A stretch of 64,000 nt of DNA from Deinococcota bacterium. Lineage in GTDB: Bacteria; Deinococcota; Deinococci; Deinococcales; Thermaceae. The translations under genes were made by a program, and so were the position numbers. How positions within the stretch are numbered: the first letter of the stretch is position 1; every line of letters begins with the position of its first letter. Shown here in pieces: positions 3,030 through 58,780 of this stretch. The notes beneath the pieces are model-generated. The model did no database searches. It saw only the letters and a program-made list of their open reading frames with translations, and was not told the DNA's origin. The stretch is from positions 68,653 to 132,652 of the forward strand of contig JBGFRI010000011.1 of assembly GCA_041695225.1 (NCBI GenBank), read 5' to 3'.

Positions 3030-3197
3030 ATGGAAACTGATACTCACACCACAACCAGCCAGATGTGTACGTGTAGCACACACTGCGTCGAGAGCCCCTA
3101 CCACGAGTCAGCGTGTTGTTCACTCACGCACTGCCCATGCTGGTGCCATGAAAACAAGCGGGCAAAAAAGAACACCGTATCCGGCAGGGAGGCGTAG
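3030..3197 (+). CDS. 55-aa Cys/His-rich microprotein (not in ORF track)
   Basis: GGAGGAAGG RBS, ATG 3030, TAG 3195-3197 overlapping the ardC start; 8 Cys. Confidence 0.55.
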   Translation: METDTHTTTSQMCTCSTHCVESPYHESACCSLTHCPCWCHENKRAKKNTVSGREA

Positions 3198-37305: not shown

Positions 37306-37307
37306 CC

Positions 37308-41393: not shown

Positions 41394-41732
41394 GGGCAGC
41401 ACGAGGCTTAACCTGATAGTTTCTTGCCTTGCTTCTGTTGTTCTTGCAGGTTTTAGCTTTATTGGTCCCAACAAGAACAACACCCATCCTCAGATGGAGT
41501 GCATCGCTCCGGTTATTGCAGGAATAGCAAAGCGGCACAATGCGTTCCTGGCCTCCACCTTCCTGGATCATGTCGCCACCGACCTCTGCTAAATTCGAGC
41601 ATTTCTCAACCGAACACTCTGATGGCCAGGACTTTCCTGGAAGATTCAACCAGCGCTGTTTCCAGCTGCCGCATTAACACGACCTCTCGCTCGTGCCCTT
41701 TTTGTTCTTCCAAAGCGTTCTTGTGGGAAACA
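41377..41732 (-). pseudogene. small Cys-rich HNH-like protein with in-frame stop at 41674-41676
   Basis: WKNKKGTSERSC*CGSWKQRW...CSVEKC...VPLCYSCN; start approximate. Confidence 0.5.
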
Positions 41733-41836
41733 AGGCTTTTCCCACCAAGAAGAGGGCAATACCACCTACGATAATAGTGAGTGGCTCTATTCTCATAACA
41801 TGATCTTAAAAGCTCCACTTCATTTTGCACAGCGCC

Positions 41837-43392: not shown

Positions 43393-43439
43393 GGGGGGAT
43401 GTTGTCGTTTGAACTTTTTTAGTACACTACAAATCAAGT

Positions 43440-44921
43440 ATGCAACTACGGCTAGATGAGGTTTTCAAAATTTCTGGCGTACCGACTTTCACATTTGTCA
43501 AACCTACCGAATACACTAAGCTTCTGGTTTCCTTGCAAACACCAGGAAGAAGCCTCGTAGTCGAGGGGCCTTCTGGGATCGGTAAAACTACCAGCGTCAA
43601 ACAGGCCTTAAAAGAGTTGGGAATGCAACATTCGGCTACAGTACTCAGCGCCCGAAGACAGTCAGATAGAGAAGTTGTTACCCTAATTCCAGTAATGAAG
43701 GATAACGGCATAGTTATCATTGATGACTTTCATCGCCTTGATAATGATGTAAAAAGCTCTATTGCCGACTTCGCAAAAATCTTGGCAGATGAGGAAGACC
43801 CCAACACAAAACTCATTCTAATTGGCATAAATCGAGCTGGTGAAACACTTGTCAATTTTGCAGCCGACTTGGCAAACCGGATCGACAATATCCGATTTGA
43901 GGCAAATCCTTCAGAAAAAATTGAAGAGTTGATTTCTAAAGGCGAACAGGCACTGAATGTGAAACTATCATCGAAAAGCCAAATCGTAGATGATGCACGA
44001 GGCAGTTTCTACATCACACAGATGCTTTGTCATCATGCTTGTATTTTGCGTGACGTTGCAACTTGCCAACCCGTTCAAAAGACAATTGATGTGGGAATTG
44101 ATGCCATTAAGTTGGGCGTACTAGAGGATGTGTCAAGGCAATTCAAAAACTCCGTAATCAAGTTTGTTCGAGGGCCAAAGTTTAGACCTGGAGGACGGGG
44201 ATCCTATGTTCATCTCTTAAAGTGGATTGCAGAATCTACAGAGTGGTCTATGCACATACGTAGGCGGTTGGCACAAAACCCTGAGCTTCGGCCAAGTATT
44301 GTGCAAATCTTAGACAAGGGTTTCCTGGAAGGTTTTCTTCGAGCCAATGAAGAATTTGGGAATCTACTGCACTACGATCCACACACAGGAATTCTCGTTG
44401 TCGAAGATCCAAGGTTTATGTACTTTATTCGCAACATAAACTGGACTGTACTTGCCAAGGACGCAGGGTTTTTGGAGGTAGAGTTCCCACACAAATACGA
44501 TTTTGCACTTTCGTTTGCTGGTGCAGATCGAATTACTGCTGAAATGTTCGCTGCAAGATTAATTGAAGCCGAAGTTAGTGTTTTCTACGATAAGAATGAA
44601 CAATCATCTATTCTTGCCGAGAATGTTGAAGAGTACTTAGCTCCAATCTATCAGAGCCAAGCAAGATTTGTTGTCGTTTTCCTTACCAATAACTATCCGC
44701 AAAGAGTATGGACCAAGTTTGAGTCCGATCAATTTAAGACAAGAATGGGAGATGGTGATGTTATTCCAATTCGATTTGAAGACTCATCTGAAAGTTTCTT
44801 TAGTGAAACGTCAAAATTGGGAAGTATTTTTATTGACAAATCTAAAGACACTGAAGAGCAGATAGACCAAGCAATTGAGTTGCTTCTCAGAAAAATAGAG
44901 GAGTCTAGAATCAAAAATTAG
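43440..44921 (+). CDS. P-loop ATPase fused to C-terminal TIR domain (candidate defence effector)
   Basis: GPSGIGKTT, IIDDFH; YDFALSFAGADR...VFYD...WTKFE; visibly AT-richer than flanks. Confidence 0.85.
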   Translation: MQLRLDEVFKISGVPTFTFVKPTEYTKLLVSLQTPGRSLVVEGPSGIGKTTSVKQALKELGMQHSATVLSARRQSDREVVTLIPVMKDNGIVIIDDFHRLDNDVKSSIADFAKILADEEDPNTKLILIGINRAGETLVNFAADLANRIDNIRFEANPSEKIEELISKGEQALNVKLSSKSQIVDDARGSFYITQMLCHHACILRDVATCQPVQKTIDVGIDAIKLGVLEDVSRQFKNSVIKFVRGPKFRPGGRGSYVHLLKWIAESTEWSMHIRRRLAQNPELRPSIVQILDKGFLEGFLRANEEFGNLLHYDPHTGILVVEDPRFMYFIRNINWTVLAKDAGFLEVEFPHKYDFALSFAGADRITAEMFAARLIEAEVSVFYDKNEQSSILAENVEEYLAPIYQSQARFVVVFLTNNYPQRVWTKFESDQFKTRMGDGDVIPIRFEDSSESFFSETSKLGSIFIDKSKDTEEQIDQAIELLLRKIEESRIKN

Positions 44922-45186
44922 ATTTCGATAATTGAGCGTGAAACCTACTGGGCCTGCAAGCATCAACTGCCACGGAGATATTCGGGCCATAACTTTTGGT
45001 CAGTCTGAAGTGCGGTTGCAGATTGTTGGAGCTGGTGAGCGCATCGGTGTTTTCACGGATCACGGTACGCTGGCAGTCAGCACCAAGGAGGCGGGCAGTG
45101 CAGGTGAGTATCGCATCCGCACCCCGAGCCCGGCGACAGCTGTTCAGCTGGACGATTGTCCGGTGGTTGATCTAAGGTGAAGCGCT

Positions 45187-45400
45187 TCATACTGCGTGCG
45201 CAACCCCCAGCTCCACAGCCACCGTATGGAGGGGCTTGTCCCAGGTCCACAGCCGCGCATCGCCGGCCAGGACTACCGAAGCCAGTAGGTGGACATCGAG
45301 GTAGCCGAGGCCCCGGCCCATCAGGGCGTACTGGTTAATAAAGGTCAGGGCCTCGGGGTCGGTGGCCCTGGGCATGTGGCGGCCCAGCAGGCAGCAGTTA
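45187..45400 (-). pseudogene. 3' fragment of VapC/PIN toxin
   Basis: GRGLGYLDVHLLAS...LWTWDK; 5' part missing. Confidence 0.7.
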
Positions 45401-45823
45401 CTCGGTTTGGTTCCAATCGAAGGCAAGGGTTTTGACCCAGGGCATATGGGCAAAGTCTTGCGCGTTTTCAGTAACAAGCACCCTGTTGGTTGCCCATGCA
45501 CAGGCGGCAATCATCAGGTCGAAAGCTTTTTTGTGGGGGTTGCGTGTTTTGGGCAAGCCCAGTTTGACCGCTTCTCGGGCGGCTTTGTTGGCGGCCTTTT
45601 CATCAAAAGGTACAATCTCAAATCGCTCAAACAAAGCCTCGATGCTCTTTTCTTGTCGGGGGTCAACCACAAACTCGCCAACTGCATACTCGATCTTCAC
45701 CAGGGCGCTGGTCACAAGCTGCTGGTCCTTGAGCGCCTGCAACACACGCAAAGCCTCCGGCTGCTTGCGCCGGAGGGCAATAAAAAAGTTGGAGTCCAGG
45801 AGAATGCGCCCGGGTATTTTCAT
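45398..45823 (-). CDS. vapC: VapC PIN-domain toxin
   Basis: ILLDSN, FDLMIAA, LVTENAQDF. Confidence 0.9.
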   Translation of the reverse strand: MKIPGRILLDSNFFIALRRKQPEALRVLQALKDQQLVTSALVKIEYAVGEFVVDPRQEKSIEALFERFEIVPFDEKAANKAAREAVKLGLPKTRNPHKKAFDLMIAACAWATNRVLVTENAQDFAHMPWVKTLAFDWNQTE

Positions 45824-46035
45824 TACTGTGTGGCTTTAGCAATGACGCTCTTAGCCCGCTTTCTGCTTCGGACTTTGGAAGCTTTTGCCAACACAGCAAA
45901 CTCACGACCGCTAAAGCTCTTGATGGCTGCGGCCATTTTCTTGGCTCTTGCAGGGGTCAAGGGGGGCATGCCCTCCAAGATAGCCAGCACCTGCGCGGCT
46001 TTTGGGCTAACAGGCTGGATAACAGCGGCCTTCAT
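45823..46035 (-). CDS. probable cognate antitoxin
   Basis: Small basic ORF coupled (TAATG) upstream of vapC. Confidence 0.6.
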   Translation of the reverse strand: MKAAVIQPVSPKAAQVLAILEGMPPLTPARAKKMAAAIKSFSGREFAVLAKASKVRSRKRAKSVIAKATQ

Positions 46036-46306
46036 GTCTCTTATTGTACATCAATACGCACCACTGATCACGGTGATTCCCATTACCAGCCAGGGTCTGG
46101 ACAGTAGCTACCCCGTGCAGCTGCTCCTGCCCTATACCCAGACCGGCTTGCCCAGAGATTCCAAAGCCCAGGTAGCTGATTGGGCAGATCCGCAAAGACC
46201 GTATCGTGCGCCCGCTAGGACGGCTGAGCGCCGAGCTACTGGCCGAGCTTGACCGCAGAATTCGCGAGCATCTGGCATCGTAGTTAGGGATGGCGGGTGG
46301 CTGCGC

Positions 46307-46830
46307 TTAACCACCCAGCTCGGCCCGCGCCAGCAGCTTACGCTTCAGCTCGGGGGTAAGGCGGATGCCGCCGTGCTCCAGCCTGGCGAGATCGTCCTCA
46401 AGCGCGCGGTCGGCGCGCCCCAGACGATGAATGCGTAAGAGAATCCCGAGGGTTCCAACCAGCGGCAGCCCGATACCCTGCGCGTACCTGCGCGCTTTCA
46501 GGTCGTCCAGTACGACCAGGATCGGTGCACCCCCGCCTGCGTGAGATCGAGCGCCAAGGCGATGACCTCTTCCTCGCCGGGGTCAGCCAGGAGGTCGTTG
46601 CGGACTCTAAGCAGCGTCTCGTCACTTGGGTGACGCAGCTCGACCCAGTCGCGCCGGGGGATACTGCTTCCCGGAGCGCCGGGACGAGCGGTGAGTTCAG
46701 CCGCAACTTGCGGGGAAACAAGGACGCGATACAAGCCAGGGAGCAGTGATGTATAGCCCAGCAGGTCGAGAAAGATGAGCGGACTGGCGTCGAAGACCGC
46801 CTCAATCCTGGTGGGCGTGCCGGAGTTCAT
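46307..46830 (-). pseudogene. DUF3368-type PIN protein, frameshift at G5 run (46530-46534)
   Basis: VFDASPLI, DPGEEEVIALA, then DDLKARR..GTLGIL in the shifted frame; +1 G restores 174 aa. Confidence 0.75.
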
Positions 46831-47050
46831 CGTCCAGGTCGTCGGGGGTGAGGTTGGGGTACGGCAGCCCGTGGCGTGTGTACCACTGGACCGCCTCCCA
46901 GCGGCTCATGCCGAGCAGCGTTCCTGCCCTACCAAGGCTCATCCGCCCCTCGCTCACCAGCTTGAGCAGGACACCCTCAAGAACGTCCTGCTGCAACTGG
47001 GGGCCAGCAGCATCGAGAACGTCCTGCGGTAAGTCGAGTCGTACAGCCAT
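46802..47050 (-). CDS. UPF0175-family antitoxin
   Basis: L..EG.MSLGRA..LLGMSR.E...DDLDDEL; AGGGAGG RBS. Confidence 0.85.
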   Translation of the reverse strand: MAVRLDLPQDVLDAAGPQLQQDVLEGVLLKLVSEGRMSLGRAGTLLGMSRWEAVQWYTRHGLPYPNLTPDDLDDELRHAHQD

Positions 47051-47200
47051 TCACCTACCTCCCTTTCATTATAGTAGCGGTTGCAGGGCTAAGCGAAAGA
47101 GTACCCTGCGCCGCGAACTGGGGAAGGAGCTGGTCTTGCTGGCCTGGGCCATAGGGGAATACCGGGCCTGCCCCTTCACTTTGCTGCGGGCTTAAGCGCG

Positions 47201-47452
47201 ATTCCCGCCATCATTGAAACTCTAGTTCGGCGGGGGGCAGAGATAAATGCGCGGAATCAGAGAGGTATGACGCCTCTGCACTATGCGGCGGCCAAAAGCA
47301 CTACTTCAGCCATTGCCGTAACACTGCTAGAGCTGGGGGCCGACCCCAGAGTGCGTACCTCGGCAGGCAGCACTGCCTGGGATCTGATTCAACACAACCA
47401 GAAACTGCGAAACACCCCGGCCTTTCGGCGGCTCAGCGAGATACGGTTTTAG
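47201..47452 (+). pseudogene. ankyrin-repeat protein 3' remnant
   Basis: LVRRGAEINARNQRGMTPLHYAA...LLELGADP; no 5' part. Confidence 0.7.
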
Positions 47453-47649
47453 CAGAAGCACTGACCTGGCCGGGCCTTTCACACCGCCAATCAAACGTGA
47501 GTGTGTTGCCGGCTGTGTACGTGATTGTGCATAACTCTCGGCGATCACGGTGCATCGCTCGGTGGCGATTAATACCCAGGTAGTGAAAGTGGCGATTGCA
47601 GGTATGACAGTAACAGGTTTTCATTGCGGTCTCCTTCTCGTTGGTTGGA

Positions 47650-48402
47650 TCAACCATTCCGCCCCAGTGCCCTCGAGTAACTCTCCGCCACCTGGACCAG
47701 CGAACTCTCAGCATAGATCTGGGTGGTCTTGGGATTGAGGTGTCCCAGGAATTTCTGCAACTGCTCCTGCGGCATCCCCCGGTCTAACAGGATCTGGGCA
47801 ATGGAGTGGCGCAACAAGTGGGGGTAGACTCTTTTGTTAATGCCCGCTGCCAGCGCAGCCTGGTGGATCAGCTTCTGGATGGCCCGCTGGGAGTAGCGGT
47901 TATGCCGGTTGCTCTCAAAGAGGTAGCCCCGGGTCCTTCCTCCGAGGTGCATCCGCAACTCCTGGGCCAGGCCGGTCAGGATAGGCACGTAGCGCACCGA
48001 GTCTTTCTTGGCCTTGGAGATGTATGCCTGGGGAGCCTGGCCGTCGAGGGATACATCCTCCACCCGGAGGTTCACAAACTCGCTGACCCGGGCCCCGGTA
48101 TAAAACAGAGTCTTGAGCATCAGACCGTAGACCGGCTTCTTCTGGTTCAGGCGGTAGGCCGCCTCGAGCAGCTGCTCGATCTCCTGGGCGCTCAGGCGCT
48201 CCACCGTCCGCCGGCGGTTGGAGGGCTGGGTGAGTTCCAGGGCCCGGCGTACCCGCTCGACTACATACTTGGTCTGGTCGTAGTCCAGGTGAGCCTTGCG
48301 CCAGAGGCGGGTGGTCTCTCCGATCACCCACTCCAGCTCAGAGTTCGCTTTCGATTTCTGACCACGCACTTCAGTCAGTTTTAGAGAGGTTTGGAGGTTC
48401 AT
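47650..48402 (-). CDS. tyrosine recombinase (Xer/TnpI-like resolvase)
   Basis: TGARVSE, K, HLLRH, LGH....TQIY catalytic set. Confidence 0.95.
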   Translation of the reverse strand: MNLQTSLKLTEVRGQKSKANSELEWVIGETTRLWRKAHLDYDQTKYVVERVRRALELTQPSNRRRTVERLSAQEIEQLLEAAYRLNQKKPVYGLMLKTLFYTGARVSEFVNLRVEDVSLDGQAPQAYISKAKKDSVRYVPILTGLAQELRMHLGGRTRGYLFESNRHNRYSQRAIQKLIHQAALAAGINKRVYPHLLRHSIAQILLDRGMPQEQLQKFLGHLNPKTTQIYAESSLVQVAESYSRALGRNG

Positions 48403-48424
48403 ATGCCATCAGGATAGCAGAAAT

Positions 48425-48452
48425 AGTTCGCTGTTTGTATCTTGTGCGAACT
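48425..48452. other. dif-like 11-6-11 recombination site
   Basis: AGTTCGCTGTT-TGTATC-TTGTGCGAACT just upstream of the recombinase. Confidence 0.65.
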
Positions 48453-48577
48453 TGTGGGCTGGAGCTGTTCCTCTGTAGGTGGGCTTGATGGAAGAGCGAT
48501 TTGGGTGTTTTTCCGATGGAACCTGGTAGAATTGGCTACCTGAAAGCGTGGATGCGAGCAGTCTGGAGGTACTGAGA

Positions 48578-48787
48578 ATGTCTAAGGTAGAGGAGCTGCA
48601 AAGGGTGGTGGCCTCCTTAACAGCCGAGGAATATCGCGAGTTTCGCCAGTGGTTCCTGGAGCAAGACTGGGAATTGTGGGATCGGCAGATCAAGGAGGAC
48701 TCCCGAGCGGGAAGGTTGGACTTCCTGGTTCGGGAAATACGGGAAGCCCGGGAGGTCGGGGAGCAAGGCACAGTTGAGGAGCGCTGA
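48578..48787 (+). CDS. small antitoxin-like protein without adjacent toxin
   Basis: MSKVEEL...L...E...FR.WF...WD.QI..D..AG.LD.L family. Confidence 0.65.
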   Translation: MSKVEELQRVVASLTAEEYREFRQWFLEQDWELWDRQIKEDSRAGRLDFLVREIREAREVGEQGTVEER

Positions 48788-49101
48788 AGACCCTCGGATC
48801 ACAGACCTGACTGGCCAAGTACGCTCCATAGCCTGTGCGAGAATTTGCTCCCTTCAGGTATCAAGCGTTTAGTACCTCCTGGTAGTTGGCCCTCGAGGCG
48901 TTGTGTTCTGTATACCTGGCTTTCTATCGCCAGTAGCCGGGGCAGTTGCAGGTAGTTTAGGATCAGGCGTTGCATCTTGTGCGAACTTCCGGTATCTGGT
49001 AAAAAGAATCCCCACGAAGAAAAGGACGGTAGGCTTAGTTTAGTGATGGGCAGGTTGCCGTTTACCGGCAATCGTGGTTTTAGGCAGCAGGGCCGCCCCT
49101 A

Positions 49102-50481
49102 TCAACGCGCAGACGGCCTTGAGTTCGATAGTGGCGAGGTCGCGGACAATCCCGACAATGGCACTGGCGAGGTATAGCGTCGTAAGAATTCCTCCCGGTC
49201 TTTCCAGATGAGGTCTTCGAGCCACGCTGCCTCGAAGAGCCGCACCACATGCGGGTCGAACTGCTTGCCCGCATGCATGATTATCTCATTTAGCGCCTCT
49301 TCTGGCGACTTGGCCTTGGCATAGGCCCGCCCTGCGGTCATGGCCTCGTAGGCATCGGCCAGCGTGACCACCCTGGCCCACTGCGGTATGGCCTCAGCCT
49401 TCAGACCGTCTGGGTAGCCGGTTCCGTCCCAACGCTCGTGATGATTCCTTATAACCCCCTGCACATCTTTGGACAGGCGCTGGCGCATGGGATGAAGCAG
49501 CTCCAGCCCCTTGGCCGGGTGACTTTTGATCAGGTCAAACTGTTCAGAAGTCAGCTTGCCTGGGTTCAGCAAAACCGAGTCGGGTATTGCCACCTTGCCA
49601 ATATCGTGAATGCGGGCGGCATAGGTAATACGCTTCTGATCTTGCTCGTCCAGGCCCATCTTTTGTGCAACGCTGTTCGCTATGGACGCCACCCGCTCGG
49701 AGTGCAGCCGGGTAAAGGGGTCTTTGGCATCCAACGCCGATACCAGCACCTCGATGGTATTGTCGAAAGACTCTTCCAGCTTTACCTTTTCGTCCCAGTA
49801 ATAGCGCGAAAAATAGAGCAACAGCATCATAAGCAGCACCGTAAACCCACCCCACCCCCCCACCAGCGGAACCTGATATGCCTTGGCCAGCAACAACCCC
49901 ACCGGTGCCTGCACCAGGTAACTTGCCCAGAGCCAGCCATAGTTTTCAAACCAGACTTTGCGAATACTAACCCCATATAAGAGCTTGATACCATAACTCA
50001 CAGAAGATACATTTACCACAAAATAGACAACCGATGCCGCAAAAATCCCCCCAAAGTCCAGCAGATACGGGTTCAGCCCCGGCTGAGCCTGCACCAGCCA
50101 CCAGACCAGGGCGGCGGCTCCGGTGGCTAGACCATGCTGGGCTCTGTTGAAGAGGTCTTTGTACCAGGAGTAGCTGGCCTGTCCGAAGTCTTTGTTAAAG
50201 TATCCAGCAAAGACCATTACGGCGGCCAGCCAGGCTGGGAAAATGACCACCGCCGCCAGGGCTACCACAAACAAATGCGACATCGAGGCCTGAACCGGCA
50301 GTCTTATTTCAGATCGCTGGGCCATCAGGAGCAGCACCAGCCAGAAGGCTGCGTCGAGAGAATTAAAGCCTGGCTCTGGTGTTAAATTAAAAAGAAAGAC
50401 CAGCAGGGCAACAAAAGACCCCATCAAGCCCAGAATGAAGAGGAGTAGCCTGGTTGGGGGGAGCGAAAGCTGGCGTTGCAC
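49102..50481 (-). CDS. membrane-anchored HD-GYP c-di-GMP phosphodiesterase
   Basis: Multi-TM N-terminus; HSERV, HDIGK, HHERWDGTGYPDGL; leaderless TAGACT-6nt-GTG. Confidence 0.95.
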   Translation of the reverse strand: MQRQLSLPPTRLLLFILGLMGSFVALLVFLFNLTPEPGFNSLDAAFWLVLLLMAQRSEIRLPVQASMSHLFVVALAAVVIFPAWLAAVMVFAGYFNKDFGQASYSWYKDLFNRAQHGLATGAAALVWWLVQAQPGLNPYLLDFGGIFAASVVYFVVNVSSVSYGIKLLYGVSIRKVWFENYGWLWASYLVQAPVGLLLAKAYQVPLVGGWGGFTVLLMMLLLYFSRYYWDEKVKLEESFDNTIEVLVSALDAKDPFTRLHSERVASIANSVAQKMGLDEQDQKRITYAARIHDIGKVAIPDSVLLNPGKLTSEQFDLIKSHPAKGLELLHPMRQRLSKDVQGVIRNHHERWDGTGYPDGLKAEAIPQWARVVTLADAYEAMTAGRAYAKAKSPEEALNEIIMHAGKQFDPHVVRLFEAAWLEDLIWKDREEFLRRYTSPVPLSGLSATSPLSNSRPSAR

Positions 50482-50507
50482 TAGCCCAGTCTAGGGCATA
50501 GCAAACG

Positions 50508-50540
50508 AAAACCGGGTACGGATATCACACCCGTACCCGC
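50508..50540 (-). terminator. intrinsic terminator-like hairpin after peptide gene
   Basis: CGGGTACGG...CCGTACCCG followed by GTTTT on the - strand. Confidence 0.6.
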
Positions 50541-50553
50541 ACATGTTACGAGA

Positions 50554-50643
50554 TTATTTCAGGCTAGTACCAGCACCAGCAGCCATAGCCAGGGCAACCA
50601 GGGAGGCAATCAAAGCGATGATTCTGAAGGCAGTCTTTTTCAT
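50554..50643 (-). CDS. 29-aa hydrophobic peptide MKKTAFRIIALIASLVALAMAAGAGTSLK (not in ORF track)
   Basis: Strong GGAAGGAG RBS, ATG 50643, TAA, followed by terminator. Confidence 0.75.
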   Translation of the reverse strand: MKKTAFRIIALIASLVALAMAAGAGTSLK

Positions 50644-51018
50644 GGGTATCTCCTTCCAGATGGTTCGGAAGCGCTAGTGGTATCTGCGTTCCTTTCCTTG
50701 GAAGAGACAATAACCCACCCTGCCCTGTGGGTCAAGCCACACAAAGCTACTTGCACTCGGTTTATAATGTGCGACCGACTACAATGCGGCTGAATTTTCA
50801 CCGTCTACACCACGGTAGACGACCTTTAGTCTATGCGCCGGAGTGTGGGGTGTGTGTGACATTTGCACCAGAATTTGGGCCTATGCGTTACGTGAGCAAG
50901 ACCCAGAGCACCCGGTATTGCGGGGGCAAGGGGTGGCCAGATCACCCCGTAGGTCAAGTTGCGTTTATGTCCTCCTGGATTGCTTCGTAGACCCCTGGCC
51001 TTCTAGCAATGAGACACT

Positions 51019-51918
51019 ATGCCTGAAATCAGGGATCTTCCACCCGGCTTTGGTAATATAGTGATTATGTCTCCGGCTACAAGTGCTGTCCTTTCTATCA
51101 TACCCGCTCTTGCGCTTCCTGTAGTCGGACTTGTATCAGGCAGGGTTGTTGGTGATTTTTTCATCCGGGGCGATTTGATCGGTTGGACCGGTGCAGTGTT
51201 TGGGGTTCTGGTTTACGCCCTAGCCCTGGCTTCTTCATACTCGCATCTTCGGCACTATTACCGGGGCTTTGAACCACCGGGAGTCGGGGCATCGCGAGCC
51301 CTGGCTCTGGCTGTTGAGGTTGCAACCTTCTACATGAGTTTCGCCTATGTAATTATTCAGTCCCCCTGGGCTTTCTGGGGGAGTCTCATAGGGGCCTTTG
51401 TGGTGTTTTGGGGAAATTTCTCGAGCATGTACAGGGGTCACATAGAAGCTCGTCGCAGTGATTCCCTCGCGGTCACTGAAACAAGTCCGCTGGCAAGTGC
51501 CAGGACAAGCTCCGGTAAGCAAGCAGACCCAGACAGTAGAGTCATCGTGCAGGAGCATAGACACGTCGATGCTGAGGCTACAGCGCGCTCTCCTCATCAC
51601 ATAAGCAGGCTGGAGGAGATACAGGCTGTTGTGGAGCAGACGCAGATCAAGCAGGTACGTCAGTCTATGCGGGCCATCAGGACTGATGTGCCGGAACTAC
51701 AGCCGGAAACAACGGAATTAATCGCAGAAAACAGCCTATCCGATATGGACCGCAAGATTTTAGACCTGGCCGCCTCTATTCCCATAGGTCCGTCTGTGGT
51801 GGGACGGGAGCTTGGAATCGCCAAAAGCACGGCAGGAGAGCGATTGAAGCGGTTAGAACGCATGGGTCTCCTGGTCAAGGACAAAGGTGGTTACCTAAAG
51901 GGTAAGGTTTACAGTTGA
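51019..51918 (+). CDS. 4-TM membrane protein with C-terminal HTH
   Basis: Hydrophobic N-half; VGRELGIAKSTAGERLKRLE. Confidence 0.75.
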   Translation: MPEIRDLPPGFGNIVIMSPATSAVLSIIPALALPVVGLVSGRVVGDFFIRGDLIGWTGAVFGVLVYALALASSYSHLRHYYRGFEPPGVGASRALALAVEVATFYMSFAYVIIQSPWAFWGSLIGAFVVFWGNFSSMYRGHIEARRSDSLAVTETSPLASARTSSGKQADPDSRVIVQEHRHVDAEATARSPHHISRLEEIQAVVEQTQIKQVRQSMRAIRTDVPELQPETTELIAENSLSDMDRKILDLAASIPIGPSVVGRELGIAKSTAGERLKRLERMGLLVKDKGGYLKGKVYS

Positions 51919-52250
51919 ATGAGTTTTCTTGCTGCTCGAGAGGCTATAACGGCGTCCTTAACCTCAACATTTGCGTTAGGATGCTGTTCAATTGCATTTA
52001 GAATGTCCGCATCCAGAGTCTGAGCCAGTTGCATGAGTGTGGCAGTAGGAGTTTTTGGATTCTTTGCAAGTTGAAGGAGAACAGCAGGAGATTCTTCCCG
52101 GGCCAACGAGATAACACCTTCGGGTGGAAGATTCGGGTTCTGGGCCAGGAAGTACTGCACCTGCGGATCACCTTGCTGCGCCAGTTCTAGCAGAAGTTCG
52201 AAGGGGGACGAGGGGTTGCGGGCCAGCACGAGCTTCTCGTACCACTTCAT
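51909..52250 (-). CDS. leucine-rich-variant (LRV) repeat protein
   Basis: Repeated LA.NP..P...L..LA; start probably ATG 52250. Confidence 0.7.
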   Translation of the reverse strand: MKWYEKLVLARNPSSPFELLLELAQQGDPQVQYFLAQNPNLPPEGVISLAREESPAVLLQLAKNPKTPTATLMQLAQTLDADILNAIEQHPNANVEVKDAVIASRAARKLIQL

Positions 52251-52286
52251 CAGACCATATTGTGGCATAATGCGTAGGAGAGGATA

Positions 52287-52940
52287 ATGTTCAAAGTATC
52301 GCAGCTTTTGACATACCTGGTACTGCTTGCCTTTCTGAACCTGGCTGTAGCCCAGCAGAGTGTAGCAGGACGGGCAAGCGTAGTGGATGGCGATTCCCTG
52401 GAAATTCAAGGGATTAGCATACGTTTGTGGGGAGTGGATGCTGTAGAGAGCAGTCAGACCTGTCTGGACGCAGCTGGAAGGATCTGGCCTTGTGGAAGAC
52501 GGGCTGCGTTAGCGCTCTCCGATTTTCTGGGACAGCGCACCGTACACTGCCAGCGGCGGGACACCGATCGATTTGGTCGCATGGTGGCGGTCTGCCAGGT
52601 CGGGGGCGTCGAGATCAATCGGTGGCTGGTAGAGCAGGGCTGGGCATTGGCTTTTGTTAGGTACGGTGGGCAGGTTTACCTGGCGAGCCAGAACCAGGCC
52701 CGGGCAGCCAGGCGGGGCATTTGGCAGGGAACCTTCCAGGAACCGTGGAACTGGCGTAGAAACCCTGCTAATCCGCCGACAGCAGGCAGTCCGCGCCCGT
52801 CAAGTCCACCCTCCAACGTCTACTTCCGCAATTGCGCGGAGGCGCGTGCGGCAGGCGTGGCTCCGATCAGGAAGGGGCAGCCGGGGTATCGAATTGAACT
52901 GGATCGGGATAGAGATGGGGTGGCTTGTGAAACCAGGTGA
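52287..52940 (+). CDS. secreted thermonuclease with C-terminal excalibur Ca-binding domain
   Basis: VVDGDS, DRFGR; FRNCAEARAAG.AP...PGY...LDRDRDGVACE. Confidence 0.9.
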   Translation: MFKVSQLLTYLVLLAFLNLAVAQQSVAGRASVVDGDSLEIQGISIRLWGVDAVESSQTCLDAAGRIWPCGRRAALALSDFLGQRTVHCQRRDTDRFGRMVAVCQVGGVEINRWLVEQGWALAFVRYGGQVYLASQNQARAARRGIWQGTFQEPWNWRRNPANPPTAGSPRPSSPPSNVYFRNCAEARAAGVAPIRKGQPGYRIELDRDRDGVACETR

Positions 52941-53027
52941 AGCCCTTTGTGTCAATACACTACGGCATGGATCAGGGTCGTAAAGCCCTTTGCGTCAATA
53001 AAGCTAGGACACCTATCTCTTTAGAAT

Positions 53028-53996
53028 TTAGTGTACTTCAATTTGCAGAGATAAGTCTGTCTCAACCTGCGCTAACCTCCGGTTGTATATCTCCACAATT
53101 TCCTTCAGGACGCTAAAGAAATCCTTGTTTTCTTCGGTAGCGACTTCGATGATGTTCAGCGCGACGAAATCCTCGATTGAGACAATCGTCAGTTCTTTAT
53201 CAATTCCTTCATCCTGGGCAAGAATTCGGGCTTTGTTCTCCTGCTCGCGGGGGATGAGCAAAACGGGATGAAAGCCAACTTTTATGTTTTCCGCGCACTT
53301 CTGCAAAACATTTCTTGATGGAGAGGCTGTCACATGATAAACCAACTGCGAGATGGCGAAATCTCCGACGCGCTCTGTCTGCCTGTCGCCTGCATGGGCG
53401 GGGTGATTGGGAACCGTAAGACCTTTGAACCGCCTTACCAGTTTTGCACCCACGAGTTGTTGTTCAACGATCCCCCCTGAGCGCCCTTTGGCGTTTTCTA
53501 CGATCACGTTTACCCACGTCGTGGGCGCATGGCGTCGGTCAATAGCAAGTTTCAGATTTTGGCGCTTCAGCCAGGCGCCGGCAACATCCTGTAGACGCCC
53601 AATCAGTTCAAGCAACAGTTCGTCGCGAACATTGTCTGGAAGGTTCGCCAGTTTCTTGCCCCATTCAAACTGCTCAAAGAGTCTTTGCCCGTCCTGGTGC
53701 CCCTGCCGCGTTGTAATTTCCTTCAAGTAATTGCTTGGGATGTCGTAGGACTCGAGCCTTTTCCCAAGCCCCGAGCGTGCGCCGCTGACTTCGCCGCCTT
53801 GCGAAATAACTTCCTCACGCGACACAGGGCAAGCCTGCCTGAGATGGTCAAGCACAACGATGCCCATCGCAATAGTGTTTCGGGCAATCTTTCCTTGTCG
53901 CGTACAGGACTTAAGCCACTCGTCAAGAATCTGATGGCTTTGTTGCTTAGTTTCATCAACCGATACGTTTTTCAAATCCTTGCTCCTTGCGTCCAA
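53028..53996 (-). CDS. DUF4928-family putative restriction endonuclease
   Basis: LVGAKL, AGD.QT.R.GDF, HVT..P, KC..N; operon with vsr and C5-MTase; start uncertain. Confidence 0.65.
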   Translation of the reverse strand: MDARSKDLKNVSVDETKQQSHQILDEWLKSCTRQGKIARNTIAMGIVVLDHLRQACPVSREEVISQGGEVSGARSGLGKRLESYDIPSNYLKEITTRQGHQDGQRLFEQFEWGKKLANLPDNVRDELLLELIGRLQDVAGAWLKRQNLKLAIDRRHAPTTWVNVIVENAKGRSGGIVEQQLVGAKLVRRFKGLTVPNHPAHAGDRQTERVGDFAISQLVYHVTASPSRNVLQKCAENIKVGFHPVLLIPREQENKARILAQDEGIDKELTIVSIEDFVALNIIEVATEENKDFFSVLKEIVEIYNRRLAQVETDLSLQIEVH

Positions 53997-54396
53997 CAGC
54001 GCGAAGTATGCGAACCTTGATTCTCGCTGTGTTGGCTATTTCATGTTCCCACACCCTGATTACTGTCCATCCATCTCGGCGCAATCGCTGGTTATGCAAT
54101 TTAGCTAAAGCAACATTTCGCTTGATTTTGCTCTTCCAATACTCACGGTTTGTTTGGGGCAACTTTCTACGGCAATATGGGCAACCATGCCAAAAACAAC
54201 CATCAATAAACACGGCGACTCTCCGGCTGACAAATGCGACATCGGGCTTGCCAGCGAGGTTTCCGACATTTTTCTTCCATCCCTTCAAGCCCATTCCCGC
54301 AAGCATAGCAAAAAGGCGCTTTTCCAGTCTTGTGCCTTTTCCTTTGACGGACTGCATCGTCCTTCGTCGGTCTTCAGGTCTGAGGTTGTCGCCCAT
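53956..54396 (-). CDS. vsr: very short patch repair endonuclease
   Basis: GKPD, FIDGCFWHGC, YW..KI.RN, RVWEH. Confidence 0.95.
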   Translation of the reverse strand: MGDNLRPEDRRRTMQSVKGKGTRLEKRLFAMLAGMGLKGWKKNVGNLAGKPDVAFVSRRVAVFIDGCFWHGCPYCRRKLPQTNREYWKSKIKRNVALAKLHNQRLRRDGWTVIRVWEHEIANTARIKVRILRAVGRKEQGFEKRIG

Positions 54397-54544
54397 TTTT
54401 CAATAAAAAGGTTCCGGGAGTAGGTGGATCCCTCTGTCAGGACGGGACTCGGGCCTGGTCTAGGTTGCTGTACGGGCTAGTCACGTCCCGAAGGGGGTCG
54501 CCCCTCTGCGCTTTGAAACTGGCTGAGTGGTTCTTGCTCATCTT

Positions 54545-55753
54545 CTATAGTCGCTTAAAGCCTGCGGTTTTTGCGTTCAGTCTATGGGGTTTACTATAGG
54601 GTAACTTCGGTTTAAGTATCGGCGCGCCATGTTCAGCCAGCGGGTTTAGGATATGTTTGGCAATCCAGGAAATCGCGGGCACACATACTGCGTCGCCAAA
54701 ACCCGTAAGCGCTTGAACGCCGTTTACATTGATGGGATACTCGTCCGGAACTCCTTGCAGGCGCGCATACTCTCTCGGCGTCATGGCCCGCATTTTAACG
54801 CAACCTTTGCCCGCTCTTATCAAGAATTGCTTGCCACTTCCACCGACAGCAGTGCGGAGGCAGCCAGATAAATCGTCGTTCCTAACCTCAGCCCGTTGTT
54901 GGTCTTCTCGCCGTCTCCGAAAGAAGGTTCGGTAAGCGAATTGCTTACCCTGAGCTAATTGCATAACTCTTTCACGGTGCGACTGTTTCATCATGGCAAG
55001 ATGGCGGCTGATTTCTTCTTCTGACCACCACCGGCTATCTAAGTCGCTCATTTGCTCGACTATGTTCGACAAACCATCACTGTTGAGTGATGGGGGTTCT
55101 GGAATCTCGCTATAAAACCAACGCAGATCCTTGTTGGCGATGATGCTCTTCTTCAGCAGGTCCGAAAGCAGGGACTTAGGTCGCGTTAGCAGCAAGTCGG
55201 CGGTAGTATGGGTGTGGACAACCGGAAACTTCGTTCCAACAAGAAAGACGCGCAACCGGCTTTGAGGGGTGAACCTTAAAGCGTCCAAGGTGAAAACATC
55301 ACACGCATACCCAAGGTCATTGAGCGCTTGAACAGTGACTCTAAAATCATTTCCTTTGTTGGAATGTAGCCAGCCGGGAACATTCTCCACAAGTATCAAA
55401 GGCGGCGCAGATTTCCCCTGAGCCTTTAGAATTCTCACAAAACCCCAAAATGCGCTTGAATGGTTGCCGTCAATAATTCCGTTCATATTTCCTGCGAGCG
55501 AAAGGTCAATGCAGGGAAATGAGCAAGTAGCTAAAGTAGAAGGTGGAACCTGGGCGGCGTCAACTTTGAAAATGTCGTTGACTAAATAATGCCCTCTAGC
55601 GTCGGGGTAAAACGCTCTATACATTTCATATTTCTTATGGGAAATGTCGTTGGCAAACACCACTTGCCACCCGTAAGGCTGCAACCCCATTCTGACCAGG
55701 CCAATACCGGCAAAGTATTCTGCTACAGTCAAAAGTGATTCTTGTCGCTTCAT
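54545..55753 (-). CDS. C5-cytosine DNA methyltransferase
   Basis: EYFAGIG, SFPC, ENV, PQSR.R, TPREYARLQG, GDAV. Confidence 0.95.
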   Translation of the reverse strand: MKRQESLLTVAEYFAGIGLVRMGLQPYGWQVVFANDISHKKYEMYRAFYPDARGHYLVNDIFKVDAAQVPPSTLATCSFPCIDLSLAGNMNGIIDGNHSSAFWGFVRILKAQGKSAPPLILVENVPGWLHSNKGNDFRVTVQALNDLGYACDVFTLDALRFTPQSRLRVFLVGTKFPVVHTHTTADLLLTRPKSLLSDLLKKSIIANKDLRWFYSEIPEPPSLNSDGLSNIVEQMSDLDSRWWSEEEISRHLAMMKQSHRERVMQLAQGKQFAYRTFFRRRREDQQRAEVRNDDLSGCLRTAVGGSGKQFLIRAGKGCVKMRAMTPREYARLQGVPDEYPINVNGVQALTGFGDAVCVPAISWIAKHILNPLAEHGAPILKPKLPYSKPHRLNAKTAGFKRL

Positions 55754-55799
55754 TTTCCGTTACCTGACCTCAGCACCTGCGAACTACGCCTATTATACA

Positions 55800-55895
55800 T
55801 CTCTGGGACTTCAAACTCAGCCAAGGTGAGGTAGCCCAGCGAGGAGTGGATTCGCCTTTTGCAGTTAACCTCTCCGATGAAGGTCTTGATTTTCG
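55800..55895 (-). pseudogene. IS3-family transposase C-terminal remnant
   Basis: FIGEV..KRRIHSSLGYLT.AEFE. Confidence 0.6.
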
Positions 55896-55929
55896 GAGAC
55901 GTATTTTGCAATCTACGATAGGAGGCAAA

Positions 55930-56451
55930 ATGCGAGAAGCCTTTGATCGTATCAAAAAAGTTGATCCAAGAGCAACACCACAAATCGTGTCATTTAACAG
56001 TCCCGAGTTTGCGGTGCTGATGAATCACCGGAGCGTACCCGACCGGGTGCTCATAGGGCGTTTCACGGTTCCAAGCGAGGCAAACTGGATTCTTCCGAAC
56101 CCGCTACCGATGATAATAAAGCTGTTTAGCGCCGCTGATACCCAGATACCATTAGACTCCAGGCTGGTGCTGGCTAAAAGATCCTCGCTTGGTAACAAAC
56201 CGGAGGAGATCGCGCAAATTCAGTACAGTGCCTATTTCGACCTAACCGTGATTCAGCAATACAACGCTAACTTCTACCGCAGCATTCTTGCTAATCTGTT
56301 TTTACCCAACGATGGCTTTCAGATTCCAGCGATCCGATTCCAGGAAGGAGCGGTGTTGGAAATCTACGTAAAGCCTCCAGTTACCGTAGACCTTACCCAG
56401 CCCGATACTCGCTTCATGTTTCCCGTCGGCCAAAGCAACTACTATCGCTGA
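55930..56451 (+). CDS. orphan homologue of Thermus phage P23-77/IN93 small major capsid protein VP16 (single jelly roll)
   Basis: AGGAGG RBS, 173 aa; end-to-end similarity to VP16 as recalled: M.EAF.RIK, PEF, G.F.VPS.A.W..PNP.P.I.KL, LAKR, QY..Y.DLT, FY..IL, EG.VLE.YV, P.TR...P.G. Confidence 0.8.
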   Translation: MREAFDRIKKVDPRATPQIVSFNSPEFAVLMNHRSVPDRVLIGRFTVPSEANWILPNPLPMIIKLFSAADTQIPLDSRLVLAKRSSLGNKPEEIAQIQYSAYFDLTVIQQYNANFYRSILANLFLPNDGFQIPAIRFQEGAVLEIYVKPPVTVDLTQPDTRFMFPVGQSNYYR

Positions 56452-56585
56452 TGGGCTCAAGCGCTTCGATGTCTTCACCGGTAAGAACCATCACACAAGA
56501 AGCGTCGGTGGCAGGAAGGATGCAAAGGATTCCTGACAGTAACCGCTGTGCGCACCCAAAGCCAGTTTTGTACAATAAGCGCCAC

Positions 56586-57506
56586 GTGTACCGCACCGGC
56601 ACTGCAAGCTGGACCGACAAGAGCCTGCTGGAGGCTGGCTGGTATCCGCCAGGGGTCAGGGGCAGCGCCGAGCTTCAGCTCCGGTACTACGCCGAGCGCT
56701 TTGACCTGGTGGAGTTTGACGGCTCGTACTATGCCCTGCCCCGCACGGACTGGGCCAGGCGGTGGGTGGAAAGGACCCCAGCTGGCTTCCTTTTCAACGT
56801 GAAGGCCTTCAGCCTGCTGACCCGGCACCCTGTGGAAGTAGAGCGGCTGCCCAAAGACCTCAGAGCATTAGTACCCCAGCTTTCTGGCCGGGTACGGGCC
56901 TCGGCCATCCCCCAGGAGGTCGTCGAGGCGGCCTGGGAGCGGTTCCTGGGGTTCCTCGAGCCCCTGGAGCAACAGGGCCGGCTTGGTTATCTCCTCTTCC
57001 AGTTCGGCGACTGGTTTCGCCCTGTTCCAAAGAGCCTGGACTACCTGGAGGAGGTGAGCGTACGGGCCGCAGGCTACACCCTGGCCGTTGAGTTCCGGCA
57101 CGAAAGCTGGTACGCCGCGGGTATATGGCCACGGGTGAGGCGTTTCCTGGAGGAGGCTGGCCTGGTGCATGTGGTGGTGGACGCTCCTGCCCTGGAAGGG
57201 GTTCCTCCCAGGGTATGCGAGGCGACCAGCCAACGCTTCGCGGTTCTACGCTGTCACGGGCGGAACCAGAGCACCTGGAGCGGTCCGCACCAGGCCGCCT
57301 ATCAGCGCTTCAACTGGGCCTACAGCGAAGAGGAGCTGCTGGACCTGGCGGGAGCGGCCCGAGAGCTGGCACAGCAGGCCGAGCAGGTGCATATTGTCTG
57401 GAACAACAACTACGGCAAACAGGGAGTGGAGAGCGCCAGGGCCATGCAGAGGCTGCTGGGCATCGTCCCCTATGCCGGTTTGCAGGGCGCTGAGCCCCTG
57501 AGCTGA
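56586..57506 (+). CDS. DUF72 (YecE-like) protein
   Basis: GTASW, YAERFDLVE.DGSYY, FNVKA, AVEFRH.SW, RCHGRN, WNNN. Confidence 0.9.
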   Translation: MYRTGTASWTDKSLLEAGWYPPGVRGSAELQLRYYAERFDLVEFDGSYYALPRTDWARRWVERTPAGFLFNVKAFSLLTRHPVEVERLPKDLRALVPQLSGRVRASAIPQEVVEAAWERFLGFLEPLEQQGRLGYLLFQFGDWFRPVPKSLDYLEEVSVRAAGYTLAVEFRHESWYAAGIWPRVRRFLEEAGLVHVVVDAPALEGVPPRVCEATSQRFAVLRCHGRNQSTWSGPHQAAYQRFNWAYSEEELLDLAGAARELAQQAEQVHIVWNNNYGKQGVESARAMQRLLGIVPYAGLQGAEPLS

Positions 57507-57577
57507 GCTCTGGTCGGGATGGAGGGCTGAGCGACCGGCCGGCAGTCTCAGCACCACTTACAAAAAGGGAACTGTTA

Positions 57578-57606
57578 TTGACATAAAAAGGGAAAGACGT
57601 TACCCT
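57578..57606 (+). promoter_or_regulatory. sigmaA leaderless promoter of Xre-RES operon
   Basis: TTGACA-17-TACCCT, ATG 6 nt later; AAAAAGGGAA direct repeats at 57562 and 57585 (candidate operator). Confidence 0.75.
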
Positions 57607-57612
57607 CGAGCC

Positions 57613-57981
57613 ATGACCCCAGCCCTGCGCCACACCCTGATTGAAGGCCACAACCCCCAGAGCGGGCGCTTCGATGCCGTCCGGCTGGCCAAGGCGCTGG
57701 GTCTGAGCGTCCCGGAGATGGCGGTGGTCCTGGGCTACACCCCGCGTGGCCTCCGGGCAAATCCCGACTCCAAGAACCTCCAGGCCAGGCTGGGCGAGCT
57801 GGTCAGCCTCATTATTCGGTTGATGGAGGAGCTGGACGGCAGTATGGAGAACGTCAGGATCTGGCTCCACGCGCCCCACCCCGACCTGGGTGGCGTGCCC
57901 CCCTACCAGGCCATGCGGCAGGGCAATTTCGGGGCGGTGGCGACCTTGATCACCGCAATGGAAGAGGGCACCCCGCTTTGA
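57613..57981 (+). CDS. Xre/MbcA/ParS-type antitoxin
   Basis: HTH plus WLHAPHPDLGG..P C-terminal domain. Confidence 0.85.
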   Translation: MTPALRHTLIEGHNPQSGRFDAVRLAKALGLSVPEMAVVLGYTPRGLRANPDSKNLQARLGELVSLIIRLMEELDGSMENVRIWLHAPHPDLGGVPPYQAMRQGNFGAVATLITAMEEGTPL

Positions 57982-58562
57982 GGCCCAAAGAGAGGCTTCG
58001 CGAGGCCCTCGGGGGCCTGGTTCTTTCACCCGCCCAGGGTACCGCCTACCGCCTGACCAGCGTCAAATATATGACCAGTCCGCTCGCCACCGAGGGCGCG
58101 ATTAGAGCCGGTGGCCGGTACAACAAGCAGGGCCGGTTCGCGGCCCTGTACCTTGCCGACACACCTGCTACCGCACTGGCCGAGGTGCAGATGCTCAAGC
58201 TCACCGATAACCGCCTGATCGGGGTCAAGGGCCCGCCCAAGGTGCTGGTCTCCATAGACTATGCCCTGCAAACCGTGTTGAACCTGAACGACCCCGAGGT
58301 GCAGGCTGCACTGGAGACCAGTACCGAGGAGCTTCGGGCCGACTGGGTGCTCCGGCAGCAGAGGGGGCAGCGCATCCCCACCCAGGATCTGGGCGAGGCT
58401 GTGTATGAGCTGGGGAGCGCTGAGGCCCTGTGGGCTCCCTCGGCCCGCCTGAGGGGAGGCTCCAACCTGGTGGTATTTCCCAACCGCTTGCAGACTGGCA
58501 GCCGCCTGACATTGTACGACCCCGAAGGGCTGCTCTCGCTCTCGGTGTCAGGACCGCAGTAA
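57978..58562 (+). CDS. RES-domain toxin (MbcT/ParT-like)
   Basis: GGRYN, ALYLA...TALAE, TQ.LG, PSAR, NLVVFP. Confidence 0.9.
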   Translation: MRPKERLREALGGLVLSPAQGTAYRLTSVKYMTSPLATEGAIRAGGRYNKQGRFAALYLADTPATALAEVQMLKLTDNRLIGVKGPPKVLVSIDYALQTVLNLNDPEVQAALETSTEELRADWVLRQQRGQRIPTQDLGEAVYELGSAEALWAPSARLRGGSNLVVFPNRLQTGSRLTLYDPEGLLSLSVSGPQ

Positions 58563-58780
58563 ACTTGGGAGCCTGCTCAAAGCAAGAGCGTAGTTAGAGG
58601 TTACTCACACCCCGTCCCAGTCCCTGTCCAGTCCTTCACGGTATCCTGGCTGCCCTGCCAAAAGCGGAGCAGCTCCAGCCGCTAAAGCCTACCGTCTACG
58701 CCTGCAAGCCCGGCTACCGCCCGAAGCCCGATCAGGATGGAGATAGACGCTCCGAGTAGGGCATTGCACAACCGCTGCCC

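Follow-up and report, generated by a model that had tools for sequence, protein, structure and literature searches.

A lone VP16-like capsid gene, probably exapted, beside defence genes in a genome of the Thermaceae

The last 64 kb of contig C12 from a metagenome bin of the Thermaceae contain an intact gene for a relative of VP16, the small major capsid protein of Thermus phage P23-77, and no other gene of the capsid module of that virus group was recognised beside it. The question raised by this locus is why a structural virus gene should stand complete and alone among genes of bacterial defence. The stretch of 64,000 nucleotides, referred to here as the window, forms the end of its contig in an assembly of 2.83 Mb, which consists of 50 contigs and is 92% complete. 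Homology, predicted fold, phylogeny and the comparison of strains indicate that the gene is probably an exapted capsid gene, and the probability that it is kept by selection for some function is put at about 0.65. A role against related viruses, as a capsid decoy or assembly poison, is the leading explanation and is proposed tentatively, with clearly less than an even chance of being correct.

Identity and predicted fold of the capsid protein

55930..56451, + strand: gene for a lone, divergent VP16-like small major capsid protein (P0001, 173 aa), assigned from homology, predicted fold and phylogenetic tree

The open reading frame (ORF) of P0001 runs without interruption from an ATG start through 173 codons to a TGA stop, and the sequence AGGAGG at 55920–55925, 4 nt ahead of the ATG, provides a ribosome-binding site (RBS). 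Both features had been pointed out in the initial annotation of this DNA, and both are present. An alternative GTG start at 55846 would give a protein of 201 aa; the ATG was preferred because the N-termini of viral VP16 proteins align to it.

P0001 matched the VP16-like family of Pfam (PF22024) with an expectation value (E) of 3.9e-28 and a score of 98.4 bits, against a cut-off of 27, and PHROG 32692 with an E of 3.2e-35. The match to VP16 from the Protein Data Bank (PDB entry 3zmo) had an E of 8.2e-35 and extended end to end, with residues 1–170 placed on residues 1–168. Identities obtained with tblastn were 42.8% to VP16 of P23-77, 37.9% to that of Tsatsa and 37.1% to that of IN93, while identity to proviral VP16 from the same genus was at most 52%.

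The structure of P0001 was predicted with AlphaFold2 using an input alignment of 53 rows, which gave a model with a predicted local distance difference test (pLDDT) of 90.1 and a predicted template modelling score (pTM) of 0.85. The best Foldseek match of this model was to the VP16 chains of 3zmo (E 7.4e-18, template modelling (TM) score 0.74), and small capsid proteins from three archaeal viruses, SH1, HCIV-1 and HHIV-2, came next with TM scores of 0.66. P0001 has both the sequence of the VP16 family and the predicted single vertical jelly-roll fold, and no family or fold other than VP16 was matched in Pfam or Foldseek. P0001 is a true homologue of P23-77 VP16, and the end-to-end alignment proposed in the initial annotation was confirmed with 3zmo. 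The Foldseek matches included the crystal structure of a VP16–VP17 complex (3zn6). Complex prediction of P0001 with VP17 from a provirus of the same genus gave scores of 0.01 and 0.04 against a mark of 0.32, and is counted neither for nor against binding.

Absence of other virus genes

A single copy of VP16 was found in the assembly, by protein search and by the PF22024 profile. When the VP17 model PF22210 was searched against the whole assembly nothing rose above the cut-off (best E 0.116), and no packaging ATPase or membrane-protein gene was found near the P0001 gene or elsewhere in the assembly; the earlier statement that none of these genes lies nearby holds for the entire bin. All 36 annotated ORFs of P23-77 were searched against the assembly with tblastn and 8 matched at E ≤ 0.1, VP16 being the only strong match (4e-36). 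The other seven comprised a generic amidase, a small ORF4-like protein and matches at chance level. A weak match to P23-77 ORF12 on contig C10 was dropped as there is no open frame at that position. Low-stringency blastx of both flanks of the gene against proviral proteins gave only chance-level matches to VP15 and VP17 (best E 0.26).

The ORF4-like protein is encoded by an 82-aa ORF at 44932–45180 that follows a TIR-STAND gene and resembles P23-77 ORF4 (tblastn E 2e-6; phrog_33914 E 2.4e-6). A second copy is present on contig C25, and this small ORF is the sole genomic link to the virus family other than the capsid gene.

Matches to VP16 were obtained in 19 of the 67 other genomes of the bacterial family, among them 6 of 25 from the same genus, where related proviruses had been expected, and in 2 further genomes of the order. 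VP17 adjoins VP16 in every one of the 25 loci from these relatives, with VP15 and the ATPase present as well wherever the flank allows, and VP17 lies beside VP16 in the same module in 7 of 7 loci from IMG/VR. Complete VP16–VP17 modules were therefore present in 32 of 32 homologous loci, compared to the lone gene in the window, and the arrangement of proviruses of the P23-77 group (Matshushitaviridae), with VP15, VP17 and an upstream ATPase, was not encountered at the P0001 locus.

The assembly contains three arrays of clustered regularly interspaced short palindromic repeats (CRISPR), at C8:58700-59262, C10:30-1771 and C37:61583-63243, with repeats of 28, 30 and 35 nt. Comparison of their spacers with the sampled viruses and proviruses of the P23-77 group gave nothing beyond chance matches of 13 nt.

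Strain comparison and selection on the capsid gene

56586..57506, + strand: DUF72 gene (Pfam), the downstream neighbour of the capsid gene in both strains

Two close relatives of P0001 were obtained from protein collections, P0002 (173 aa, 90% identity) and P0003 (175 aa, 57% identity). The public runs containing the region were groundwater-metagenome records, four of which were compared over window positions 53000–58600. Run X10 contained the window's own strain, as contigs with 0 differences at a depth of about 510–560, together with a more abundant variant strain at a depth of about 3070–3590. Contigs of the variant extend from the capsid gene into the DUF72 gene in both X10 (record 4, 56321–56747) and X12 (record 16, 56212–57187). 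Because the two strains share this junction between capsid gene and DUF72, the loss of VP17 predates their split.

The variant capsid gene differs from that of the window at 29 nt within 55886–56350. Fourteen of the 29 differences were displayed inside the gene, and these change the amino acid in 5 codons and are silent in 7; the five changed codons correspond to the residues of P0002 (R14K, Q18K, S35I, A82T and E93G). Over codons 1–140 P0001 and P0002 differ at 11 residues. The ratio of non-synonymous to synonymous substitution rates (dN/dS, omega) for the capsid gene was 0.16–0.28, calculated over 324 non-synonymous and 96 synonymous sites with a binomial P of 7e-6 to 2e-3 against neutrality, and is a rough value derived from the contig-level count of differences and the P0002 protein instead of a full codon alignment. 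VP16 genes of working proviruses, at a dS similar to or above that of the capsid gene, gave omega values of 0.04–0.11 in the same-genus clade and 0.12–0.22 in the Thermus clade (dS 0.16–0.35). On this rough estimate the lone capsid gene appears to have been under purifying selection since the two strains separated. The initial annotation had named dN/dS as a check on its reading, and as omega is far from neutral the result argues against neutral decay.

The nucleotide divergence of the capsid gene was 6.2%, with values of 8.2% (56212–57187) and 4.4% (57559–58600) for its neighbours, and since these divergences resemble one another vertical descent of the gene together with its neighbours fits.

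The contig coding for the N-terminus of P0003 fits the window at 55885–55919 and then at 55999–56124, with 12 differences in 126 nt, and has its own RBS and start codon between these segments. In X10 its depth was 3069.6 compared to 3073.3 for the contig of the variant's P0002, and P0002 and P0003 are both recorded on contigs of which the longest is 164,221 bp. Because the depth and the 164,221-bp record agree, we infer that one genome carries P0002 and P0003 as paralogues. A shared-word search started from a same-genus VP17 gave 28 relatives, none of them recorded on a contig of 164,221 bp; this hints weakly that VP17 is missing beside P0003 as well.

Limits of the capsid cassette and its immediate neighbours

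53028..55753, − strand: type II restriction–modification (R-M) operon (Pfam; PADLOC REase_II, Vsr and MTase_II), a neighbour in the window strain only
53028–53996, − strand: DUF4928 restriction enzyme gene of this operon (Pfam; PADLOC REase_II)
53956–54396, − strand: Vsr nicking endonuclease gene of this operon (Pfam; PADLOC Vsr)
54545–55753, − strand: C5 cytosine methylase gene of this operon (Pfam; PADLOC MTase_II)
55807..55893, − strand: 3'-end fragment of an IS3-type transposase gene, abutting the leader, from matches of 43 nt and 17 aa
55885..55929, + strand: leader of the capsid cassette with the RBS AGGAGG, its left similarity limit common to the variant strain's copy and P0003
56452..56564, + strand: trailer of the cassette, ending where organisms that lack the capsid gene start to match (56541, 56564)

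The variant contig matches the window only from 55886, and the 29 letters preceding this position do not match. On the right side, organisms in X11 (record 14) and X17 (record 26) possess the DUF72 gene, and their match to the window begins at 56564 and 56541 respectively. From these limits the unit extends from about 55885 to 56541–56564 and comprises the ORF with 45 nt of leader before it and approximately 100 nt of trailer behind it, about 0.66 kb in all.

The leader RNA (55860–55951) was predicted to fold better than shuffled sequences (z −2.9), forming a hairpin at 55914–55951 in which the Shine-Dalgarno sequence pairs with codons 4–5 and the ATG lies in the loop. Of two silent changes in the sister strain, one retains a pair of this hairpin (G-C to G-U) and the other breaks one. 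The fold of the trailer region (56445–56590) was no better than that of shuffled sequences (z −0.12), and neither a terminator nor the attC-like hairpin that follows the ORF in integron gene cassettes was found there. No Rfam family was matched in 55000–57000, no convincing att-like repeats were found in 41000–58000 and the window contains 0 tRNA genes. Two loose-end strings from the contigs of other strains were sought in the window's own genome as island borders, with 0 matches each.

All the flanking features initially described, the C5-methylase/vsr/DUF4928 operon, the IS3 scar and DUF72, are present, the scar being tiny. It matches the end of a transposase gene at the end of contig C10 (C10:137543-137593) over 43 nt at 93% and 17 aa at 82%, and has no Pfam match. 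The longest ORF for DUF72 has 351 aa, starting from 56451 where it overlaps the stop codon of the capsid gene, and Pfam recognises the domain from residue 65 onwards. In the variant strain a deletion of 1 nt at 56478 disrupts the N-terminal extension of this ORF, which is accordingly regarded as non-coding, and translation of DUF72 probably begins at the GTG at 56586, not at 56451. The DUF72 gene was not found at E ≤ 1e-20 in the 25 other genomes of the genus, so that no empty site can be defined.

Phylogeny and residue conservation

Among 5.8 billion protein clusters, only P0002 and P0003 were placed near P0001 by a word-indexed search, and the same three proteins were returned when the search was started from P0003. 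A HMMER search against 1.84 billion representatives gave 31 relatives at E ≤ 1e-3, of which only the P0003 cluster was close. The maximum-likelihood tree contained 34 rows after removal of one truncated row and three duplicates. P0001, P0002 and P0003 are monophyletic in this tree with support of 100/100, in agreement with the prediction of a clade apart from proviral VP16, and are sister to the same-genus proviral clade at 94/91. The stem of the lone clade measures 0.68 plus 0.34 changes per site, compared to 0.03–0.06 for the tips of the sister proviruses.

Residue conservation was examined using 66 alignment columns that are invariant among 18 viral and proviral VP16 proteins from both main clades. 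All three lone members keep 32 of these, some of them have changed 23 and all have changed 11. The lone clade has therefore not kept the residues that are invariant in working viral VP16: 34 of the 66 are altered in at least one member, several of them charged, and the positions changed in all three proteins include a charge reversal from D to R/K. Compared with viral VP16 the clade also has an insertion of 4 aa after residue 34, and a stretch of 27 residues is almost identical across P0001, P0002 and P0003.

Loci around P0002 and P0003 were sought in genome, metagenome and viral contig collections, from which near relatives are possibly absent, and none were found; a degenerate DNA pattern of the conserved peptide also gave no match in the genome and metagenome contig collections.

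P0006, a protein of 144 aa with 14 members on contigs of up to 48 kb, was considered as a truncated lone relative and rejected. It consists of a VP16 N-terminus (84 aa) and an out-of-frame tail, and the IMG/VR contig that matches it (L028) codes at 8001–8507 for a normal VP16 of 169 aa in a full virus module. P0006 is a frameshifted version of this ordinary viral protein, either as a recurrent gene call or as a real frameshift variant.

Wider genomic region

C12:25000-68652 and window 1–28000: backbone resembling that of an integrative conjugative element (ICE)
920–1387 and 52287–52940: two staphylococcal-nuclease-type genes, 51 kb apart, the second with an Excalibur calcium-binding domain
27656–28864, − strand: TnpB/OrfB_IS605 gene with a Cas12f-like TNB domain, between the replication genes and the helicase/methylase trio
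29387–41390: helicase/methylase trio of three large co-directional genes (Pfam, PADLOC)
43440–45180: STAND NTPase gene with a C-terminal TIR domain (PADLOC candidate PDC-S59), 42% GC, 11 kb upstream of the capsid gene, the range including the ORF4-like ORF
47650–48402, − strand: tyrosine recombinase gene (Pfam), 7.5 kb upstream of the capsid gene
57613–58562: Xre-antitoxin/RES-toxin pair, 1.2 kb downstream of the capsid gene

The capsid gene lies at the edge of a region of low GC content that contains defence and mobile genes. The R-M operon, the TIR-STAND gene, the helicase/methylase trio and the Xre-RES pair surround it, which bears out the defence-island setting that had been claimed, and a gene for an HD-GYP protein also lies to the left of the R-M operon. 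That no integrase lies nearby had been claimed too; this is true in a loose sense, as there is a tyrosine recombinase gene upstream and nothing ties it to the capsid gene. The GC content at third codon positions (GC3) of the capsid gene is 0.56, similar to 0.48–0.57 for the R-M genes and lower than the 0.69–0.79 of same-genus proviral VP16 genes. It also falls below the 5th percentile (0.61) of the long ORFs of the genome, which have a median of 0.73.

The first gene of the trio codes for a DEAD helicase of 1707 aa with MZB and DUF559 domains, whose best PADLOC match was DruE. The second codes for a SNF2 helicase of 932 aa that matched DpdE (E 8.8e-241) and DrmD (E 1.6e-83), and the third for an Eco57I-type methylase of 1361 aa (DrmMI, type IIG). 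The trio mixes parts of Druantia, Dpd and DISARM-like systems, and no single named system fitted it in the PADLOC and Pfam scans.

The backbone genes upstream of the window code for a large serine recombinase (C12:25000-26517), a coupling protein of a type IV secretion system (C12:43812-46127), an SLT transglycosylase and an SLH-domain protein. Those in the window code for ArdC, ParB, a DUF6094 methylase, a helicase, DnaN, a DnaC-like loader, a class I ribonucleotide reductase, an Erf/Rad52 annealing protein and an exonuclease. In gene content the region resembles an integrative conjugative element that carries defence genes as cargo, and the capsid gene may stand at the far end of this cargo region.

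The Xre-RES pair is followed by a LexA-type repressor, a relative of the ImuB-like Y-family polymerases and a DnaE2-type polymerase, extending up to 64000. This SOS mutagenesis cassette of LexA/ImuB/DnaE2 type beside the island has a GC content of 63–69%, and its DnaE2-type ORF runs off the end of the contig.

Proposed function and alternative explanations

In the proposed mechanism, the starting point would be a VP16 gene from a tailless, membrane-containing virus of Thermus or Meiothermus (P23-77 group), stripped of all other viral genes. P0001 would be made in the cell and fold as the VP16 jelly roll. The capsid of P23-77 is estimated to contain 1080 copies of VP16, 540 of VP17 and 147 of VP11, and these three proteins associate into complexes on mixing (PMC12429598). 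In a model put forward for the assembly of HHIV-2, a related archaeal virus, the lattice is built from homo- and heterodimers of two capsid proteins (PMC5332951). On infection by a related virus P0001 might enter or cap such a VP16/VP17 capsomer lattice through the interfaces that it has retained, while the loss of other contacts would cause assembly to stall or go wrong, leaving few infectious particles. The outcome would be protection at the level of the population, in the manner of a dominant-negative subunit. The presence of proviruses in the genus indicates that it has been exposed to this virus family, in favour of such a decoy.

Both phage satellites and mammalian genomes are known to encode capsid homologues that counteract viruses. 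To our knowledge none is known for the vertical single-jelly-roll virus lineage, and no report of a lone host-kept or domesticated capsid gene as bacterial defence was found in the open-access literature, subscription literature lying outside this search. The mammalian examples are the Fv1-type domesticated capsid (gag) genes found in mice, which are kept by the host, have diverged and stem from an extinct or absent virus; they have been proposed to restrict related viruses by contact between capsid proteins. By analogy P0001 could be the first bacterial counterpart of this type, a chromosomal single-gene cassette kept by selection for poisoning the capsid assembly of related viruses, retooled by fast change at its lattice contacts and both duplicating and moving as defence cargo in a Meiothermus-like population, although in this full form the proposal is rather unlikely.

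Several observations weigh against a selected, and in particular an antiviral, function, and some of them favour a stranded, functionless remnant, in which an unsampled divergent provirus was eroded by deletions and insertion sequence activity and the ORF stayed open by luck or hitch-hiking. The lone clade has three known members, apparently all from one species complex, so that the predicted recurrence as singletons in defence islands across taxa was not seen; P0001 lies among recognised defence genes here, and these three members do not show it recurring by such genes in unrelated genomes. P0001 was matched by 0 families of PADLOC-DB 2.0 at E ≤ 1e-3. The 24 public runs included no RNA dataset, and 0 sigma-70-like promoter matches were found in 55600–56800, where the gene upstream is divergent. 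A position of the lone clade beyond the two sampled viral clades was not rejected by an approximately unbiased (AU) test (p 0.237); part of its long branch may therefore reflect an unsampled virus lineage and not change after capture, and the origin assumed for a remnant is allowed by this test. P0003 has a deletion, an odd composition and a long tip and may be decaying. The omega value itself is rough, an IS3 fragment abuts the leader, the surroundings are a patchwork of mobile DNA, and in 37% of simulations about 30 neutral substitutions did not close an ORF of this length. Set against these points are an omega of 0.16–0.28 (P ≤ 0.002) between strains that share the gene–DUF72 junction, the sparing of leader, RBS and stop codon at both deletion end-points with no trace of VP15 or VP17, and the existence of a paralogue with the same leader. 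A functionless remnant is judged unlikely.

A working capsid gene is also conceivable, with the remaining virus genes on DNA outside the bin, as an episome or another contig, and the chromosomal copy supplying VP16 in trans. The assembly is a metagenome bin, 92% complete and in 50 contigs, which leaves room for an unbinned episomal virus, and members of the family can persist as small circular genomes (records of 17–20 kb). This explanation is highly improbable, because VP16 sits within a VP15–VP16–VP17 order in all 32 sampled viruses and proviruses, none of the 28 VP17 relatives is on a contig of 164,221 bp, the length recorded for P0002 and P0003, and many residues invariant in working VP16 have been lost. 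P0001 is unlike a working virus gene in both its neighbours and these residues, and as half of the invariants have changed it may no longer bind viral partners or co-assemble, a further difficulty for the decoy. The changed residues would suit instead a new job for the jelly-roll protein in the host or element, unrelated to viruses and perhaps carried out together with DUF72: purifying selection acts without any viral partner, new clade-specific conservation such as the 27-residue stretch accompanies the 34 of 66 lost invariants, and the linkage to DUF72 has been kept in two strains. However, the organisms of X11 and X17 hold DUF72 alone, so DUF72 does not need the capsid gene; the composition and neighbourhood of the gene are those of mobile defence cargo, and VP16 is the sole family and fold that it matches. 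Such a job is thought unlikely, to much the same degree as the remnant. Less likely than either, by analogy with satellites, is a piracy gene with which a satellite-like or conjugative element would remodel the capsid of a helper for its own DNA, harm to the virus being a side effect. The capsid gene ends an ICE-like region of about 100 kb that codes for a serine recombinase, a type IV secretion coupling protein, ArdC and ParB; there is also a tyrosine recombinase gene at a distance of 7.5 kb, and a precedent among capsid homologues is Ccm of SaPIbov5 (PMC8569155). Yet the cassette of about 0.66 kb occurs next to differing DNA on its left side, it has no associated gene of packaging, replication-initiator or small-terminase type, and the ICE-like region far exceeds the 17–20 kb capacity, from record lengths, of the capsid of this family.

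Retention of the lone gene by selection for some function is the reading preferred here. Annotation pipelines would otherwise class such a gene as prophage debris. If it proves protective, it would add a simple one-gene route of protein mimicry to prokaryotic immunity and provide a handle on the assembly of two-protein capsomers in these viruses; with no role in defence it would still illustrate cleanly how a structural gene of a virus can survive alone under selection.

Comparison with known systems

P0001 resembles viral VP16 (PF22024; PDB ids 3zmo and 3zn4–6) in its length, end-to-end alignment, N-terminal motif and predicted single jelly-roll fold with an N-terminal helix. It differs in the lack of VP15, VP17 and ATPase neighbours, in the 4-aa insertion and in its lower GC3. 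Fv1 is a eukaryotic retroviral gag gene with another fold that acts at another step of infection, and the comparison with it is one of analogy only.

Ccm of SaPIbov5 is described as a capsid homologue that redirects the assembly of the helper-phage capsid (PMC8569155). Like Ccm, P0001 is a stand-alone homologue of a capsid protein outside a virus that could co-assemble (PMC8569155, PMC5052747). The fold of Ccm is the HK97 type known from tailed phages, and its gene belongs to a defined, packaged satellite, whereas P0001 has the predicted vertical single jelly roll of a membrane-containing virus and is a candidate for such an activity; it shares the homology expected of a satellite component, with no satellite-sized unit recognised around it and the nearest recombinase 7.5 kb off. 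The tail assembly blocker Tab of a Pseudomonas prophage is reported to stop virion assembly and not replication, giving protection at the population level (PMC10884400). Unlike Tab, P0001 is a homologue of a capsid protein, and no gene was recognised as its partner; the proposed block of virion assembly is what the two would have in common.

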